In this document: in pieces, positions 1,969-53,938 of the stretch | Position numbering within the stretch: the stretch's first letter is position 1 | Layout: each line of letters starts with the position of its first letter | NCBI GenBank assembly: GCA_964481125.1 | Contig: CAYZSL010000002.1 | Coordinates: 24,597 to 88,596, forward strand | DNA: 64,000 bases | Direction: 5' to 3' | DNA from: an uncultured Candidatus Saccharibacteria bacterium | GTDB taxonomy: Bacteria > Patescibacteriota > Minisyncoccia > Minisyncoccales > RBG-13-42-11 | The notes under the pieces: generated by a model | The model's input: only the letters and a program-made list of their open reading frames with translations | The model's database searches: none | What the model was told of the DNA's origin: nothing | Made by a program: the position numbers and the translations under genes

Positions 1969-2529
1969 ATGGTACTGATTGTCGGCCTGGGCAACCCAGG
2001 AGAAAAATACGAAAAAACGAGGCACAATGTAGGCTTTAAAGCGGTAGAAGAAATTGTCAAGATTTTTGATTTTCCAATCTTTACTTCCAAATCAATTTTT
2101 AAGGCTGAAATTTCAAAAGGAATATACAATAATAAAAATATTGTTTTAGCTAAGCCGAAAACCTTCATGAATCTTTCAGGACAAGCAGTAAAACTGCTGA
2201 TGAAAAGCTTTAAAACAAAAGATTTGATCGTTATTCACGATGATATCGATATTCCTTTGGGGAAAATCAGAATTGCCGATAACCGGGGAGCAGCCAGCCA
2301 TAATGGCGTTGAATCAATAATCAACGAACTGAAAACAAAAAACTTCATAAGACTGCGTATCGGTATAAAACCAAAAATAAAGATTAAGGCTTTGGACAGA
2401 TTCGTTCTTCAAAAGTTCAGTAAAGAAGAAACGGAAGCTGTGAAAGAAGTTATTAAAAAAACCGTTGAAGCGGTTGAAACAATAGTGAATAAAGGACTGC
2501 AAAAGGCGATGAATACATATAATAAATGA
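1969..2529 (+). CDS. pth: peptidyl-tRNA hydrolase
   Basis: 186 aa. N-terminal VGLGNPG..Y..TRHNVGF motif characteristic of Pth. Confidence 0.85.
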   Translation: MVLIVGLGNPGEKYEKTRHNVGFKAVEEIVKIFDFPIFTSKSIFKAEISKGIYNNKNIVLAKPKTFMNLSGQAVKLLMKSFKTKDLIVIHDDIDIPLGKIRIADNRGAASHNGVESIINELKTKNFIRLRIGIKPKIKIKALDRFVLQKFSKEETEAVKEVIKKTVEAVETIVNKGLQKAMNTYNK

Positions 2530-2569
2530 AAAGCCGAGGCAATGACTTGAACATTGTTTTCCTCGGCTC

Positions 2570-2752
2570 TCAAGATCTTTGCTTGATGATGCGCTGAATC
2601 GATTTTGCTACTTCTTTAATTGTGAAACTGGAAGACTTAATGGGATATTTTATAATCACTATCCCATGATCTATCAAACAAATAAAATTTCCAGTTTTTT
2701 TAAGGGAATATGAAGGTGGCAATCGCACCATCTTTTTAATTTGTGCTATCAA
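2570..2752 (-). CDS. hypothetical small protein (60 aa, TTG start)
   Basis: Near-perfect Shine-Dalgarno AAGGAGGTG lies 5 nt upstream of a TTG at 2750-2752. The ORF ends inside a bidirectional hairpin terminator (2534-2575). It is preceded by a structured leader and a consensus promoter. Confidence 0.35.
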   Translation of the reverse strand: MIAQIKKMVRLPPSYSLKKTGNFICLIDHGIVIIKYPIKSSSFTIKEVAKSIQRIIKQRS

Positions 2753-2993
2753 GGATTCACCTCCTTAAATATAGTAAGAGCAAGCATATCTCGCCCTCCA
2801 GTCTACCTGCAAGCGTTATGGATCAGGAACAAAAGTCCAAATCCGTAACCTAGGGCACTAAGTTAAAGGAGGGATAACTTAGAATCCATCCTCCTACCCT
2901 CCCTAAAAGAGAAAGTAAGGTTAAGCCACTAGCAGGCAGACTGCAAGGCGAAACTTTGACAAAAAACAACGATATATTATATATTATACATAA

Positions 2994-3021
2994 TTGAATG
3001 AATTTGTCAACCATGTTAGAA
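2994..3021 (-). promoter_or_regulatory. sigma70-like promoter (TTGACA-16-TATAAT) on minus strand
   Basis: Reverse complement reads TTGACAaattcattcaattatgTATAAT. It drives the leader plus small ORF at 2570-2985. Confidence 0.45.
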
Positions 3022-3074
3022 ATTTTACAAAAGTTTGTAATTTTCAAAAACAATGTTAAGTTAAAAAAACGTTT

Positions 3075-5129
3075 ATGCAATTAGTAATCGTTGAAAGCCC
3101 TACAAAAGGGAAAACAATTGAAAAATTCTTAGGCTCCAAATACCGAGTCTTATCTTCTTACGGTCATGTTAGGGATTTACCCAAGACCAAATTTGGCATT
3201 GACGTGGAAAATGATTTTACTCCGACATACATTATTATGCCAAAAGCCAAAAAAAACGTAGAGCTTCTGAAAAAAGAAATAAAAAAAGCAGATTCAGTAA
3301 TCCTAGCTACAGACGAAGACAGGGAAGGAGAAGCAATCGCCTATCATCTGACCCAGGCTTTAGATTTAAAAAATGCAAAAAGAATTGTTTTCCACGAAAT
3401 TACCAAATCAGCAATTAAAGAAGCCTTAGAAAACCCCAGAGAAATTGATATGGCTTTGGTTGACGCCCAGCAAGCCAGAAGATTTTTGGACAGAATAGTC
3501 GGCTACAAACTCTCTCCTTTTCTATGGAAAAAAGTGGCCAGGGGCCTGTCTGCCGGCAGAGTCCAGTCAATAGCCGTAAGACTGGTGGTTGAGAGAGAAG
3601 AAGAAATAAAGAACTTCAAACCCCAGGAATACTGGACTGTCATTGCTCTTCTAAAAAAATCTTCTACCTCGAAACAAACATTTGAAGCTTTTTTAATTAA
3701 AAAAGACGACAAAGTTTTAGACAAACTGGAAATATCAAACAAAAAAGAAGCAGATAAGATTGTCAAAGACTTAAATGAGGCAGAGTATAAAGTATTAAAT
3801 ATCGATGAAAAAGAAGCAAAAAGAAATCCTTTGCCGCCTTTCACCACCAGCACCTTGCAGCAAACAGCCTGGCAGAAATTCAGGCTTCCGGCAAAGATAA
3901 CCATGCGAATCGCCCAAAGCTTATATGAGAAAGGTTTCATTACCTACCACCGAACCGACTCTTTGAACCTCTCAAACCAATCGCTTTTTTCCGCTAAAAA
4001 ATTCATTATTGACAACTACGGAGAAAAATACTGGCCGGGATTCCCGAGAAAATATAAAACAAAAGCAAAAGGAGCCCAAGAAGCCCACGAAGCAATAAGA
4101 CCCAGTTATCCTGATAAATCCCCTGAACAATTAAAAACGCAAGCTAAGCTTGAAGAAAGCCAATTCAAGCTTTACGATTTAATCTGGAGGAGATTCGTCG
4201 CCTGCCAAATGAGCCAGGCAATATTTGATTCAACGACCGTGGACATTTCAGCCAAAAACTATACTTTCCGGGTTAACGGACAGATGCTAAAATTTGACGG
4301 GTTTTTGAAGATTTATCCGATCAAATACGAAGAAAAAGATCTGCCGTCTTTAAAGAAAGATGAGGTCCTGAAATTAGTAAAATTAGATCCTTCACAACAC
4401 TTTACCGAACCGCCTCCCCGCTATAATGAAGCAACCATCATCAAGACCCTAGAAGAAAACGGAATAGGCAGGCCATCAACTTATGCTCCAATTCTTTCCA
4501 ATATCCAGGATAAAAACTATATTGAAAAAGACGAACAAAGAAGATTCAGACCGACTGAAATTGGCAGCGTGGTCAACAACCTTTTAGTCGCCCATTTTCC
4601 TGAAATCGTTGACATCGGTTTTACAGCTAAAATGGAAGAAGATTTGGACGAAATCGCTCAAAAAAAGAAAGAGCTAATTCCAGTAATTAAGGAATTCTAT
4701 ACACCTTTTGAAAAGAACTTGAAACAAAAATATGAAGAGGTTTCCAAAAAAGACATTACTGAAAAGCCAACTGAAAAAACCTGCCCGAAATGCAAAGCCC
4801 CTCTTTTGATACGAATCGGCAGATACGGAGAGTTTTATGCCTGTTCAAAATTCCCGAAATGCCGGTATACCGAATCACTTGAAAAAAATAATCTCGGAGT
4901 CAAATGCCCGAAATGCAAAAAGGGGAAAATCGTTGAAAAGAGAACTAAAAAAAGAAAGATATTCTACGGCTGCGACCAATTCCCAAAGTGCGACTTTGCT
5001 TTATGGGATAAACCAACTGGAGAAAAATGCAAAAAATGCGACTCTCTCATGGTGAAAACAAGAAGATGGGGAGAAAAATGCTCGAATAAGGAATGCGATT
5101 TTAAAATTGAAAAAGAAGGAAAACTTTGA
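3075..5129 (+). CDS. topA: DNA topoisomerase I with C-terminal Zn-ribbon repeats
   Basis: 684 aa. TOPRIM N-terminus (VIVESPTKGKTI), type IA core, and repeated CPKC/CxxC zinc-finger modules at the C-terminus. Confidence 0.9.
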   Translation: MQLVIVESPTKGKTIEKFLGSKYRVLSSYGHVRDLPKTKFGIDVENDFTPTYIIMPKAKKNVELLKKEIKKADSVILATDEDREGEAIAYHLTQALDLKNAKRIVFHEITKSAIKEALENPREIDMALVDAQQARRFLDRIVGYKLSPFLWKKVARGLSAGRVQSIAVRLVVEREEEIKNFKPQEYWTVIALLKKSSTSKQTFEAFLIKKDDKVLDKLEISNKKEADKIVKDLNEAEYKVLNIDEKEAKRNPLPPFTTSTLQQTAWQKFRLPAKITMRIAQSLYEKGFITYHRTDSLNLSNQSLFSAKKFIIDNYGEKYWPGFPRKYKTKAKGAQEAHEAIRPSYPDKSPEQLKTQAKLEESQFKLYDLIWRRFVACQMSQAIFDSTTVDISAKNYTFRVNGQMLKFDGFLKIYPIKYEEKDLPSLKKDEVLKLVKLDPSQHFTEPPPRYNEATIIKTLEENGIGRPSTYAPILSNIQDKNYIEKDEQRRFRPTEIGSVVNNLLVAHFPEIVDIGFTAKMEEDLDEIAQKKKELIPVIKEFYTPFEKNLKQKYEEVSKKDITEKPTEKTCPKCKAPLLIRIGRYGEFYACSKFPKCRYTESLEKNNLGVKCPKCKKGKIVEKRTKKRKIFYGCDQFPKCDFALWDKPTGEKCKKCDSLMVKTRRWGEKCSNKECDFKIEKEGKL

Positions 5130-51226: not shown

Positions 51227-51790
51227 TTAGTTTTTGTATTTTGAATTTGATTTTTTCTCTTTTTTAATCAAATTAATGACTTCCTGAACCAGTTTCTTGG
51301 GATCTTCATCATAAACAATTTTTGCCACTTTTCGGTGGGGACCGGTAATAATTGACCTTATCTTGTCGGCTGTCCCGCCTGTTCCTTCCAAAACGCCTAT
51401 TGGCTTTTGGATTTCAAAGGCAGTGGTAAATTCGTGCAAAGTGCCCATTCTGCCGCAGATAATGATAACTGCATCTGCTGACTTTGTCATAATGGTATCT
51501 CTGCCCACGTAATCTGCTCCGGTATAGATCATAACGTCAAAAGGCTCTAAAGGCAGTTTGTAAGTTTTCAAATGGGCGCCCTCTGAAGTGGCTGGTGAAA
51601 AGCCAACGTTAAAACCGCCAGCTTTTTTGCATCCCAAGGCAGCAAAGTAAGGAACGCCGGTAGTCGCTCCTGTAACAAGTACGCACTTTTTCTTGGCGAT
51701 TTCCCGACCAACCTCTTCTGACACTCTTTTAATATTTCTGCAGCAATGGCTGGTTCTGGCCGCGCCTGAAACAACGATTTTGTAATTCAT
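51227..51790 (-). CDS. LOG/TIGR00725-family Rossmann protein
   Basis: 187 aa. VVSGAARTSH..GATTGVPYFAALG..ICGRMGTLHE pattern of the LOG/SLOG superfamily. GC-richer than neighbours. Confidence 0.6.
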   Translation of the reverse strand: MNYKIVVSGAARTSHCCRNIKRVSEEVGREIAKKKCVLVTGATTGVPYFAALGCKKAGGFNVGFSPATSEGAHLKTYKLPLEPFDVMIYTGADYVGRDTIMTKSADAVIIICGRMGTLHEFTTAFEIQKPIGVLEGTGGTADKIRSIITGPHRKVAKIVYDEDPKKLVQEVINLIKKEKKSNSKYKN

Positions 51791-52071
51791 AAGCTATTCT
51801 TATTTTAACACAACTCTTTAAATTAAAAAATCCCGCTATAAGCCGGATTCTTTAATAAGGGGGAATAGCTCTTGACGAACTTGATTGTTCACTTAAGTCT
51901 AGTTGGACATTGTTAGGCAGCTGCTGTATCTCCTTCATCAAAAACTATCTGTCCTTTTGGGCAAAAAACCCGCACCCCCTCACTTTTAAGTTTAATTGAG
52001 TGATATTTTTTGTCAAGATTTTGTTGATTCTAACCTCTATAAAGAAAAAGTGGCAAGGCTCTCAGCTTTAT

Positions 52072-52578
52072 CTAAATTCCAAATTTCCGGATAGCCTCAT
52101 TCATATCTTCTGCTAAAGCCATCCTTGTCATTTTTTGAATATCAGAGGGAATTGGTTTATAACTTGCTGGCATTCTAAACTTTCTGTAGTTTTGGAGTTT
52201 TTTAAACTTATCTCGTGGAAGTTCTGCGATATAAAGAAAACCATTTTTTTTATCATTAATTTTAGACCTAATTTCTTTAGCTGATAACTTTTCAATTTTA
52301 TTGATATCTATAAATGAGGATCTTTCCCTAAAATAATCAGGGTATTCTAAGTTTCTATTTATCCATTCAGATTCTTTGACTTCAATTGTCAAAAACTTTT
52401 GACAAGCACTGATAGAACTCATTAAAATAAAAAAATAAAAAAAATCCACTTCTAACTCTAAGGGGAATGTATTTCCAGCTAATTTATATTTTCTTCTTGT
52501 CTTTTTAATACGTTTTTCAAAAGACTTTTTGTCGAAATATACATTTCGTGTCTTGATATACTCTTCGAGAGCAATCAT
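52072..52578 (-). CDS. unknown protein, candidate toxin/effector partner of the Panacea-domain protein (PD-(D/E)xK-like D..EVK motif)
   Basis: 168 aa, very AT-rich. Lies 12 bp downstream of the Panacea-domain gene in the same orientation. Contains ELEVD(47)...IEVKE(66). Confidence 0.5.
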   Translation of the reverse strand: MIALEEYIKTRNVYFDKKSFEKRIKKTRRKYKLAGNTFPLELEVDFFYFFILMSSISACQKFLTIEVKESEWINRNLEYPDYFRERSSFIDINKIEKLSAKEIRSKINDKKNGFLYIAELPRDKFKKLQNYRKFRMPASYKPIPSDIQKMTRMALAEDMNEAIRKFGI

Positions 52579-52590
52579 AGTTTTAAAGCT

Positions 52591-53067
52591 CTATCGCTTA
52601 CCAAACTTTAATCTCAATCCTATACCCTTTGAATTATTTGTTTTTGCTCCCAATGCGATCATCGGTTTTGTTCTATAAGCTATTTCGGTAAGGGCTCTTG
52701 CGCCATATCCTTTTACTGATTCTAATAATTCATCTATTATCATCAATTCTTTGCTGTTTATTTTATCGCTATTATAATCAGAAGATTCACTAGGAGAATA
52801 TACTACAAATTCTTTCCCTGTTGTTATCGTATAGTCGCTCTTTGGAATAATTATTTTTTTATTGATTAAATCTTCAATATACAAATAAATTTTGCTATCA
52901 AAAGGACCATAATAATATCTTCTATATTTAAAATTTGATACTTGTTTTTTATATCTCTCTACGCTTATTAAGTCTACCAAATAAGCAAGCTTCATCAGGC
53001 TTGTTATTGAACATTCTGGATTTTTCTTAAGTAGAGAAAAAATCAGTTGCTTGGTTTTTTCATTCAT
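52591..53067 (-). CDS. Panacea-domain (DUF4065, SocA-like) protein, candidate antitoxin
   Basis: 158 aa. SLMKLAYLVDL...YRRYYYGPFDSKIY matches the KLxKLlYxaD...W/YxYGPv..ly signature of DUF4065. Confidence 0.55.
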   Translation of the reverse strand: MNEKTKQLIFSLLKKNPECSITSLMKLAYLVDLISVERYKKQVSNFKYRRYYYGPFDSKIYLYIEDLINKKIIIPKSDYTITTGKEFVVYSPSESSDYNSDKINSKELMIIDELLESVKGYGARALTEIAYRTKPMIALGAKTNNSKGIGLRLKFGKR

Positions 53068-53153
53068 ATTGTAATTATATTATTATAGCAGCTCTGTTAA
53101 AAGAATACAAGTAAAATAAAAAACTGCTCAAAAATGAATATTTTACTTTAATA

Positions 53154-53225
53154 TGCCCCCAGCAGGAATCGAACCTGCATTTTGAGTTCCGGAAACTCAT
53201 GTTTTATCCATTAAACTACAGGGGC
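53154..53225 (-). tRNA. tRNA-Pro (anticodon CGG), CCA not encoded
   Basis: Reverse complement: acceptor GCCCCTG/TGGGGGC, anticodon stem GAGTT/AACTC with loop TCCGGAA, T-arm GCAGG-TTCGATT-CCTGC. Confidence 0.8.
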
Positions 53226-53938
53226 TTTTTAGCAATTAAATAAATATTACCCTCTTTAGATTTTTTGTTTCTAAAACCGCCGATTTCCTTTAACTTTAAA
53301 TCAGACCTTTCAGCTAGTTCTTTTAATTCGTTCTTTGTAAAAAAGTGGACATAACGTAGGAGAACGTTTTTCCAAGGAATGAAAAAATCTTTAAAATCGA
53401 GTTTTGATTTTCCTAAAATTTTTAAGATAAAACATTTTAAAAAACCTGAAAATCTTTTGTACCGACCGGTTAGAATCATATTAATCGGATTCAAGTTCCA
53501 AACAGTTAAAATTAGCATTCCTTTGGGCTTCATGATTCTTTTTATCTCTTTTAAAAATTTGAGGCGCAATTCTTTAGATGGAATATGATGCAATACGGCA
53601 ATACATAAAACTCTATCGAAAAGATTATCCGGAAATGGTAAATTAAAAGCAGACGAAACTAGAAAATTACCGTTAGGATACTTGTTTTTCGCAATTTCAA
53701 TTAATCTTTCTGAAAAATCTACTCCGGTATAATCAACTTTTTTGTCGTTAAATATTTCAAAAAATCTTCCATTTCCACAACCTAGATCTAAAACTCTATC
53801 TCCGACAAAAATGTATCGCAAGAACCATTCTTTCTCTTTAGGGGAAACGAAATTTCTAGTCTTTGACCAGTCCTCAGCAATTAGATTATAATCTTCCTTA
53901 GTTTTACCTAATAAATATTTAGCAAAATCTTTATCCAT
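53216..53938 (-). CDS. class I SAM-dependent methyltransferase
   Basis: 240 aa. Motif I VLDLGCGNGRF. The stop codon sits inside the 5' end of tRNA-Pro (10-nt overlap). Confidence 0.75.
   Translation of the reverse strand: MDKDFAKYLLGKTKEDYNLIAEDWSKTRNFVSPKEKEWFLRYIFVGDRVLDLGCGNGRFFEIFNDKKVDYTGVDFSERLIEIAKNKYPNGNFLVSSAFNLPFPDNLFDRVLCIAVLHHIPSKELRLKFLKEIKRIMKPKGMLILTVWNLNPINMILTGRYKRFSGFLKCFILKILGKSKLDFKDFFIPWKNVLLRYVHFFTKNELKELAERSDLKLKEIGGFRNKKSKEGNIYLIAKKPL

Follow-up and report, generated by a model that had tools for sequence, protein, structure and literature searches.

The systems closest to the locus described here are the PanAT toxin-antitoxin (TA) pairs. Kurata et al. 2022 predicted 88 clusters of PanT toxins, including the MazF/PemK/EndoA-like groups T5 and T6, in which the partner is a PanA of the noNTD class and the antitoxin gene comes first, and the PanTs of Pseudomonas moraviensis and Bifidobacterium ruminantium were validated as translation inhibitors that are neutralised by PanA and form complexes with it (PMC8832971). 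Ernits et al. [quoted passage not shown] Here, we compare with these systems a two-gene module from an ultra-small bacterium whose second gene encodes a protein without recognisable sequence relatives in the curated collections.

The module lies in a 64-kb window, that is, the whole stretch of 64,000 nucleotides that was analysed. It consists of two co-oriented open reading frames (ORFs) on the minus strand, the first encoding 158 and the second 168 amino acids, with 12 nt between them; the same ORFs, their shared orientation and their spacing had been given in an earlier description made from the letters of the window and its ORF list (hereafter the sequence-only reading). The features to which the text refers are the following.

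52591..53067, minus strand: panA, encoding a 158-aa standalone Panacea protein (PF13274), the predicted antitoxin
52669..52998, minus strand: Panacea domain in panA, residues 24-133
52072..52578, minus strand: putative toxin gene, 168 aa, with its stop codon at 52072..52074
52216..52551, minus strand: MazF/Kid/CcdB-like SH3-barrel core of the toxin gene, residues ~10-121, a predicted fold
52075..52215, minus strand: helical C-terminal region of the toxin gene, residues 122-168, with predicted helices at 122-135, 145-154 and 159-165
53154..53225, minus strand: tRNA-Arg(CCG), called by ARAGORN and matching Rfam RF00005 at 66.5 bits, with orthologues in the relatives L021 and L022
53068..53153, minus strand: AT-rich leader, 86 nt, 18.6% GC
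52030..53153, minus strand: inserted cassette of ~1.12 kb, comprising the leader, panA, the toxin gene and a ~45-nt tail, edges approximate (about ±10 nt)
52011..52016, minus strand: TTGACA, the -35-like hexamer of the next ancestral element, marking the downstream insertion boundary and lying outside the TA module
51791..~52030: ancestral conserved non-coding element of about 240 nt, outside the insert
51852..51984, minus strand: structured RNA candidate of ~133 nt, upstream of the SLOG/TIGR00725 gene
51227..51790: SLOG/LOG-related gene, the downstream neighbour (PF18306 LDcluster4, E=4e-34)

The last of these is the gene that had been recognised as LOG-like in the sequence-only reading, and its profile match agrees with that call. 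On the other side, the 3' end of the tRNA gene (53154) faces the gene pair and forms the upstream boundary of the insertion. A tRNA gene in this orientation had been reported, but as tRNA-Pro(CGG); the anticodon loop reads TTCCGGA, which gives the anticodon CCG and a tRNA-Arg, in agreement with ARAGORN, and the earlier name results from an interchange of codon and anticodon. Farther upstream of the tRNA lie genes for a class I SAM methyltransferase and an Elp3-type radical-SAM protein, and the methyltransferase ORF (53216..53938) runs into the tRNA gene with its final 10 nt. Proteins encoded near the cassette have cluster-mates at 90% identity or above in MAGs of Candidatus Paceibacterota/Pacebacteria and Candidatus Nealsonbacteria, which makes the host a CPR bacterium.

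The leader between the tRNA gene and panA carries a promoter-like TTGTAT (53110..53105), separated by a 17-nt spacer from an extended -10 element, TGCTATAAT (53090..53082), the likeness being one of consensus resemblance only. This putative promoter would leave a 5' untranslated region of just ~8-15 nt ahead of the panA ATG. The promoter scan did not flag the leader because the -35 element, TTGTAT, agrees with the consensus at 3 of 6 positions.

That the pair was inserted at this site is evident from two syntenic relatives, L021 and L022, whose SLOG proteins are 79-80% identical to that of the window. The TTGACA hexamer, promoter-like by the scan, sits in a block, ATCTTGACA, that is invariant in the window, L021 and L022. 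The distance from the 3' end of the tRNA to this block is 12-14 nt in the two relatives and 1,137 nt in the window, and the panA-toxin cassette is therefore an insertion of ~1.12 kb that is present here and absent there. The gene order Elp3, methyltransferase, tRNA-Arg(CCG), SLOG and an 87-aa protein is found in L022; in L021, the tRNA, the SLOG gene and the 87-aa protein are kept, and the methyltransferase region is there without having been called as a gene. The cassette has a GC content of 28.5%, and no 1.1-kb stretch of the window has a lower value (window mean 37.4%, sd 3.1); the adjoining methyltransferase gene is nearly as AT-rich (30.2% GC). The 1.4-kb AT-rich segment of the sequence-only reading is thus low in GC as described, but ~240 nt of it (51791..~52030) are ancestral and lie outside the insert.

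The comparison with L021 and L022 thus reveals a presence/absence difference next to the 3' end of a tRNA gene, one of the marks of a tRNA-targeted island, and to this extent the earlier suggestion of a classic integration hotspot stands. Beyond this it is weakly borne out, since no integrase ORF was found in or beside the insert and a search with a 7-nt seed returned no att-like direct repeat of the tRNA 3' end. A clean, integrase-free insertion of 1.1 kb between a tRNA gene and a conserved promoter offers a tidy illustration of how minimal TA cassettes move.

The ancestral element that bounds the insertion merits a separate remark. It contains a structured RNA candidate, with a TTGACA/-10-like promoter ahead of it and a terminator-like hairpin behind it; the candidate is kept in both L021 and L022 with the invariant blocks GAGGGGGTGCG, AAGGACA, GGAGA and TGTCC. 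Of the 32 pairs that RNAalifold predicted from the three sequences, 8 show compensatory changes. The candidate matched no family of Rfam 15 at E<=1, its covariance model found no additional copies in the searched sequences, and a pattern search of IMG/VR returned none. With just three sequences to hand, the element is a candidate riboswitch or sRNA, and its novelty may exceed that of the cassette.

The identity of the first gene of the cassette is clear. The panA product matches PF13274 (SocA_Panacea) with E=1.5e-11 and 45.7 bits against a gathering score of 25.7, residues 24-133 aligning to positions 1-109 of the 113 in the profile. The motifs KLAYLVD and YYYGPF, from which the sequence-only reading had proposed a Panacea/SocA protein, are present, and G54-P55-F56-D57 are invariant among PanA orthologues; the profile match above cut-off upholds that proposal. 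As no second Pfam domain scores above threshold, PanA belongs to the standalone noNTD class, without HTH, PAD1 or ZBD. It also weakly matches the PADLOC models PDC-M19A, a defence candidate, and DarG.

The pairing of PanA with its 168-aa partner is strict, and the two co-evolve. When the neighbourhoods of partner homologues were surveyed, a Panacea gene was found directly upstream and on the same strand in 14 of 14 independent contexts (L001-L006, L007, L010/L011, L013-L015 and the distant representatives L016 and L018-L020). These span partner identities from 57% down to ~21%, include a deltaproteobacterial MAG, and have gaps of -8 to +33 nt between the two genes; the flanking genes are different in every one of them, with the PanA-partner pair the constant part. 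Over the 12 full pairs, the pairwise identities of PanA and of the partner correlate (r=0.86, Mantel p=2e-4), and this co-divergence indicates that the two genes are inherited and diverge as one unit. Adjacency and co-divergence together point to functional coupling. What Kurata et al. 2022 ask of a two-gene PanAT, namely a short gap (here 12 nt), a pair that is kept and flanks that vary, is found at this locus, and the idea of a PanAT-type pair, put forward in the sequence-only reading, gains from these data as well as from the PF13274 score.

Several homologous pairs elsewhere adjoin tyrosine integrases, serine recombinases and a small terminase subunit, and also an N6/N4 methylase with a ResIII helicase and a type I HsdR. 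Two properties of the pair count against reading it as a type II TA system. Mean identity over the 12 pairs is higher in PanA (45%) than in the partner (31%), whereas in many type II pairs conservation runs the opposite way, the antitoxin being the less conserved component. In addition, PanA and the partner of the window are both basic, so that there is no charge complementarity between them.

The partner had been described as lacking any similarity that could be recognised, and the searches agree. Neither the 168-aa protein nor its relatives gave more than noise in Pfam, PADLOC, PHROGs and NCBIfam, and the family profile, run against the sequences of the PDB, returned none but ApoL noise (E~0.4). 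An HMM search of 1.84 billion representatives recovered 198 partner clusters at E<=1e-3 and 152 at E<=1e-10, that is, ~200 clusters counted at 50% identity, with members that are nearly all single-domain proteins of 157-180 aa. A word-indexed protein search gave four relatives with the partner itself and 7 proteins with the family profile; narrower family alignments, searched against sequence collections, gave 1 genome locus, 4 metagenome loci and 0 viral loci.

The family is almost confined to metagenomes and MAGs of the CPR. All of the 20 clusters looked up are metagenome or MAG singletons, and where an organism is named it is Candidatus Pace(i)bacter*; one more distant member comes from a deltaproteobacterial MAG. 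Searches with the partner by tblastn gave no match in GenBank phages or in PLSDB plasmids, and IMG/VR held none either. The family is basic throughout (median pI 9.1-9.5), which would fit nucleic-acid binding, a weak pointer in an AT-rich genome with a Lys-rich proteome. Conservation is concentrated at a few positions: K30 (100%), D16, F49 and K106 (97%), S19 and K32 (95%), F114 (93%), E21 (91%) and N112 (90%). The window protein keeps K30, D16, S19, E21, K32, K106 and N112 and departs from the family at T24 (84%), which is Ile, and at T53 (75%), which is Met. Position 53 is M, A or S in the window protein and its closest relatives, among which S54 is kept only partly.

The fold of the partner was predicted with AlphaFold (AF2). 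The five closest homologues alone yielded an unusable model (pLDDT 36.5); the 141-sequence family alignment gave a pLDDT of 93.4 and a pTM of 0.89. This second model has six beta strands and helices within residues 12-135, then two more helices, and contains an SH3-like barrel of the MazF/Kid kind. The partner is thus predicted to be an SH3-like barrel of the MazF/CcdB superfold. MazF proteins are just 105-120 aa long, so the last ~45-50 residues of the partner are additional and form a helical C-terminal region in the model. The hydrophobic run FFYFFILM could be taken for a transmembrane helix. We rejected this reading: in the model the run makes up strand 3 in the core of the barrel, and F49 lies at a position 97% conserved in the family.

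Sequence comparison with known MazF proteins gave no such likeness. The window partner does not match PF02452 (E<=1), and at most 2 of the 141 family members do so (E<=0.1). Alignment of the partner family by hhalign with four MazF/Kid sequences (E. coli MazF, B. subtilis EndoA, Kid and Klebsiella MazF) gave a probability of 0.1, the target profile being thin, so that a remote homology may have escaped it; the three full-length targets are 100% identical to 3nfc_A, 4me7_A and 1m1f_A, and the fourth comes from the 7bye_B alignment. In MazF, the catalytic Arg starts strand 2 and a Thr or Ser ends strand 3 (R29 and T52 of the E. coli protein), and a loop of the form G-S-E-Q-x-G-x-R-P (variant G-S/H-E-Q-x-G-x-R-P) is present. 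By secondary-structure register, strand 1 of the partner holds D16, S19 and E21, and strand 2 holds K30 and K32; the two strands make up the first hairpin. As a lead from the model, this hairpin would correspond to the MazF region that carries the G-S-E-Q-x-G-x-R-P loop and the catalytic Arg. T53 (75%) and S/T54 (73%) end strand 3, the place of the catalytic Thr in MazF, and the window protein has M53-S54 at this point. The best candidates in the family for the MazF catalytic residues are, by register, the invariant K30 and T53/S54.

Taken together, we favor the explanation that the pair is a type II PanAT cassette with a toxin of the MazF fold, probably an endoribonuclease, and we place its probability at about 0.68. 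In the mechanism that we infer, panA and the toxin gene, 12 nt apart, would probably be co-transcribed, and PanA would bind the toxin directly and thereby hold it inactive. If PanA were lost, degraded or triggered (e.g. by phage infection), the toxin would be freed and would then most likely cleave RNA in the manner of MazF-type endoribonucleases, bringing translation and growth to a stop. Such an arrest could serve addiction or abortive infection. The cassette itself entered a CPR genome (Paceibacterota/Nealsonbacteria-like) as a 1.1-kb insertion downstream of tRNA-Arg(CCG). A more far-reaching version can be imagined, and we hold it to be doubtful: the partner family would be an unrecognised MazF/CcdB branch with a Lys-based active site (the invariant K30 with D16/S19/E21/K32/K106/N112), a helical C-terminal module and a target or chemistry other than that of MazF (a specific tRNA/rRNA, or a non-nucleolytic activity), and it would be wired exclusively to one phage-responsive Panacea clade as an abortive-infection system of CRISPR-poor CPR.

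The MazF/CcdB fold also carries toxins that are not RNases, CcdB among them, which counts against the RNase reading. PanA could accordingly control a CcdB-like gyrase poison, or a toxin with some other target, possibly acting through its C-terminal helices. We consider this unlikely.

A similarly small chance goes to a sensor-effector or adaptor system for phage defence in a CRISPR-poor CPR host, with Panacea as the trigger sensor or as a SocA-like ClpXP adaptor. SocA, the founding member of PF13274, is such an adaptor; of the two proteins, PanA is the better conserved; and there are the restriction-modification (RM) and other mobile or defence genes beside homologous pairs, together with the weak PDC-M19A match. 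A sensor is also what Ernits et al. proposed Panacea to be (PMC10440598), and CPR bacteria, which for the most part lack CRISPR, depend on RM or Abi systems (PMC4742961). Standalone Panacea antitoxins have nevertheless been demonstrated to neutralise directly (PMC10440598) and PanA-PanT complexes have been pulled down (PMC8832971), and the lack of partner-family matches in IMG/VR and GenBank phages speaks in the same direction. The proposal overlaps with the type II PanAT explanation and is not exclusive of it.

It is quite improbable that the partner is no toxin at all, that is, a harmless RNA- or DNA-binding SH3-barrel protein co-inherited with a PanA clade, or that the pair is decaying in this genome. 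The substitutions T24I and T53M at family-conserved positions could be read in this way, and several predicted PanTs, a MazF-like protein of Flavobacterium xanthum among them, proved harmless to E. coli in the work of Kurata et al. (PMC8832971). The strict adjacency and co-divergence argue otherwise, as do two ORFs that are intact and full length relative to their homologues and the retention of K30, D16, S19, E21, K32, K106 and N112. T53 is substituted throughout the closest subclade, so its change is typical of the lineage and not a sign of decay.

The chance that the partner is a PD-(D/E)xK nuclease using a D...E-V-K arrangement, as the sequence-only reading had surmised, is negligible: its support is D45, E66 and K68 of this single sequence, the spacing is D45-x20-E66-V-K68 and not D-x18-E-V-K, these positions vary across the family (G27/D26/N17% at 45, E20/T15/C15% at 66, E19/K18% at 68) and already within the set of its five nearest homologues, and the model shows a MazF-type beta-barrel and not an alpha/beta fold. 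A type III TA system (ToxIN/AbiQ/CptIN) was considered and rejected, as there is no antitoxin-RNA repeat array, the only tandem repeat found by TRF at the locus being an A-rich run of 8 nt x2.5 inside an ORF, and the upstream position is taken by a protein gene.

How, then, does the favoured PanAT cassette stand among described systems? Compared with MazEF, Kis-Kid and PemIK, the antitoxin here is a Panacea protein and not an AbrB/RHH MazE-type protein, and the toxin does not match PF02452. The partner family conserves D16, S19, E21, K30, K32, K106 and N112 in place of the MazF loop and Thr, and its model has three helices after the barrel where MazF has one. CcdAB includes a CcdA antitoxin, to which nothing in the cassette corresponds, and the structural score of the partner is lower for CcdB than for MazF. 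The type III toxins ToxN, AbiQ and CptN follow tandem antitoxin-RNA repeats, whereas the gene upstream of the partner encodes a protein antitoxin. SocAB of Caulobacter has in common with the pair the PF13274 domain of its antitoxin, and SocA acts as a ClpXP adaptor. The two systems part at the toxin, since SocB, which binds DnaN, has no relation to the MazF fold and the partner is predicted to be of MazF type.

The likeness is greatest to PanAT T5 and T6, with which the cassette shares a standalone Panacea gene in first place, a toxin gene in second, a gap of a few nucleotides and the character of a mobile two-gene unit. Like the T5/T6 toxins, the partner has no CDD or Pfam match and has a MazF-like structure, here a predicted one. 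The T5/T6 toxins are MazF by HHpred (up to 99.5%), whereas the partner family gives no profile-profile signal against a small MazF profile, and its proteins are about 50 residues longer than MazF, which sets them apart from T5/T6 as these have been described. The uncultured CPR and metagenomic lineages that carry the partner family are absent from the RefSeq set of Kurata 2022 and from NetFlax, and no Parcubacteria/Patescibacteria rows appear in the accessible part of the accession list in the Kurata 2022 supplement.

The sequence-only reading had expected an undescribed toxin, and this is right for the sequence family, which is uncatalogued, but not for the fold, as MazF/PemK is already a validated class of PanT (PMC8832971). 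Both the PanAT system type and the MazF fold class of its toxin are already known, and the PanAT concept is unchanged. What is new is a toxin sequence family that is uncatalogued, strictly linked to Panacea, enriched in uncultured CPR lineages and furnished with a C-terminal helical extension. With it, a sequence-orphan family of ~200 clusters joins the Panacea network as one more MazF-fold toxin, which supports the published view that the partners of PanA recur on few folds even where sequence similarity is lacking. Since RefSeq surveys have missed these largely CRISPR-less lineages, the two-gene module provides a useful handle on addiction and defence in ultra-small bacteria, beside the T5 and T6 pairs that it most resembles.

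The interval between tRNA-Arg(CCG) and the SLOG gene (LDcluster4/TIGR00725) holds a conserved non-coding element of about 133 nt, which is also found in L021 and L022, two syntenic relatives that lack the insert encoding PanA (the predicted Panacea-domain antitoxin) and its partner (the predicted toxin). The copies and the signals belonging to the element are as follows.

51852..51984, minus strand: conserved non-coding element, window copy
4753..4885, plus strand: conserved non-coding element, L022 copy
4732..4866, plus strand: conserved non-coding element, L021 copy
52016..52011, minus strand: promoter-like TTGACA, window
~51826..51850, minus strand: terminator-like hairpin and T-run, window

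Invariant among the three loci are the blocks GAGGGGGTGCG, AAGGACA, GGAGA, TGTCC and CAAG..CGT.A.GA, and the closing helix is GAGGGGG/CCCCC(U)C. RNAalifold, run on the three sequences, returned 32 pairs, 8 of them with compensatory changes. The terminator-like hairpin that follows the element differs from locus to locus (window, L021 and L022), and a search of Rfam 15 with the element matched no family at E<=1. From these three sequences, the element is a candidate riboswitch or sRNA of CPR bacteria.

Beyond the other boundary of the insert, two features overlap in the window.

53154..53225, minus strand: tRNA-Arg(CCG)
53216..53938: methyltransferase ORF

The 5' end of the tRNA gene shares 10 nt (53216..53225) with the end of the methyltransferase ORF, including its stop codon. 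In L021, a methyltransferase orthologue is recognisable in the DNA at ~3871..4560 on the plus strand (ATGGATAGAAAATACGCTGAATATTTATTAAAG...) without a called gene; this reflects either a frameshift or decay into a pseudogene, or homopolymer errors from long reads in that contig. In a Candidatus Pacebacteria bacterium GenBank MAG, the SLOG (MBL7142283.1) and Elp3 (MBL7142287.1) proteins share 90%-identity clusters with those of the window. Three protein accessions separate the two, and the window likewise has three genes between SLOG and Elp3 (toxin, PanA and methyltransferase). Judging from accession numbering, this MAG may bear the same or another two-gene insert.

In the window, PanA is encoded at 52591..53067 and the partner at 52072..52578, both on the minus strand. 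Across 12 pairs (that of the window and 11 homologous ones), mean pairwise identity was 45% for PanA versus 31% for the partner, and the predicted antitoxin is thus better conserved than the predicted toxin. The pI of PanA ranges from 4.5 to 9.6 among pairs, and the partner is basic throughout. About 300 nt downstream of the pair in L014, a metagenome contig, lies another ORF, which may represent a tandem second PanA module.

2280..3071, plus strand: second, divergent Panacea-like ORF, L014 (E=1e-6 to the PanA profile)

Residue 24 of the partner is Thr in 84% of the family and Ile in the window protein; residue 53, which closes strand 3 and corresponds in placement to the catalytic Thr of MazF, is Thr in 75% and Met in the window protein. 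The closest subclade has M/A/S at position 53, so its predicted active site may differ. The window PanA weakly matches positions 175-275 of 329 of the PADLOC DarG model (E=2e-4) and 176-254 of 338 of NCBIfam antitoxin_DarG (E=0.02), in the middle/C-terminal part. A further weak match, at E=9e-5, is to PDC-M19A, a defence-candidate model of PADLOC. These weak matches suggest a Panacea-like domain within DarG and PDC-M19A proteins.
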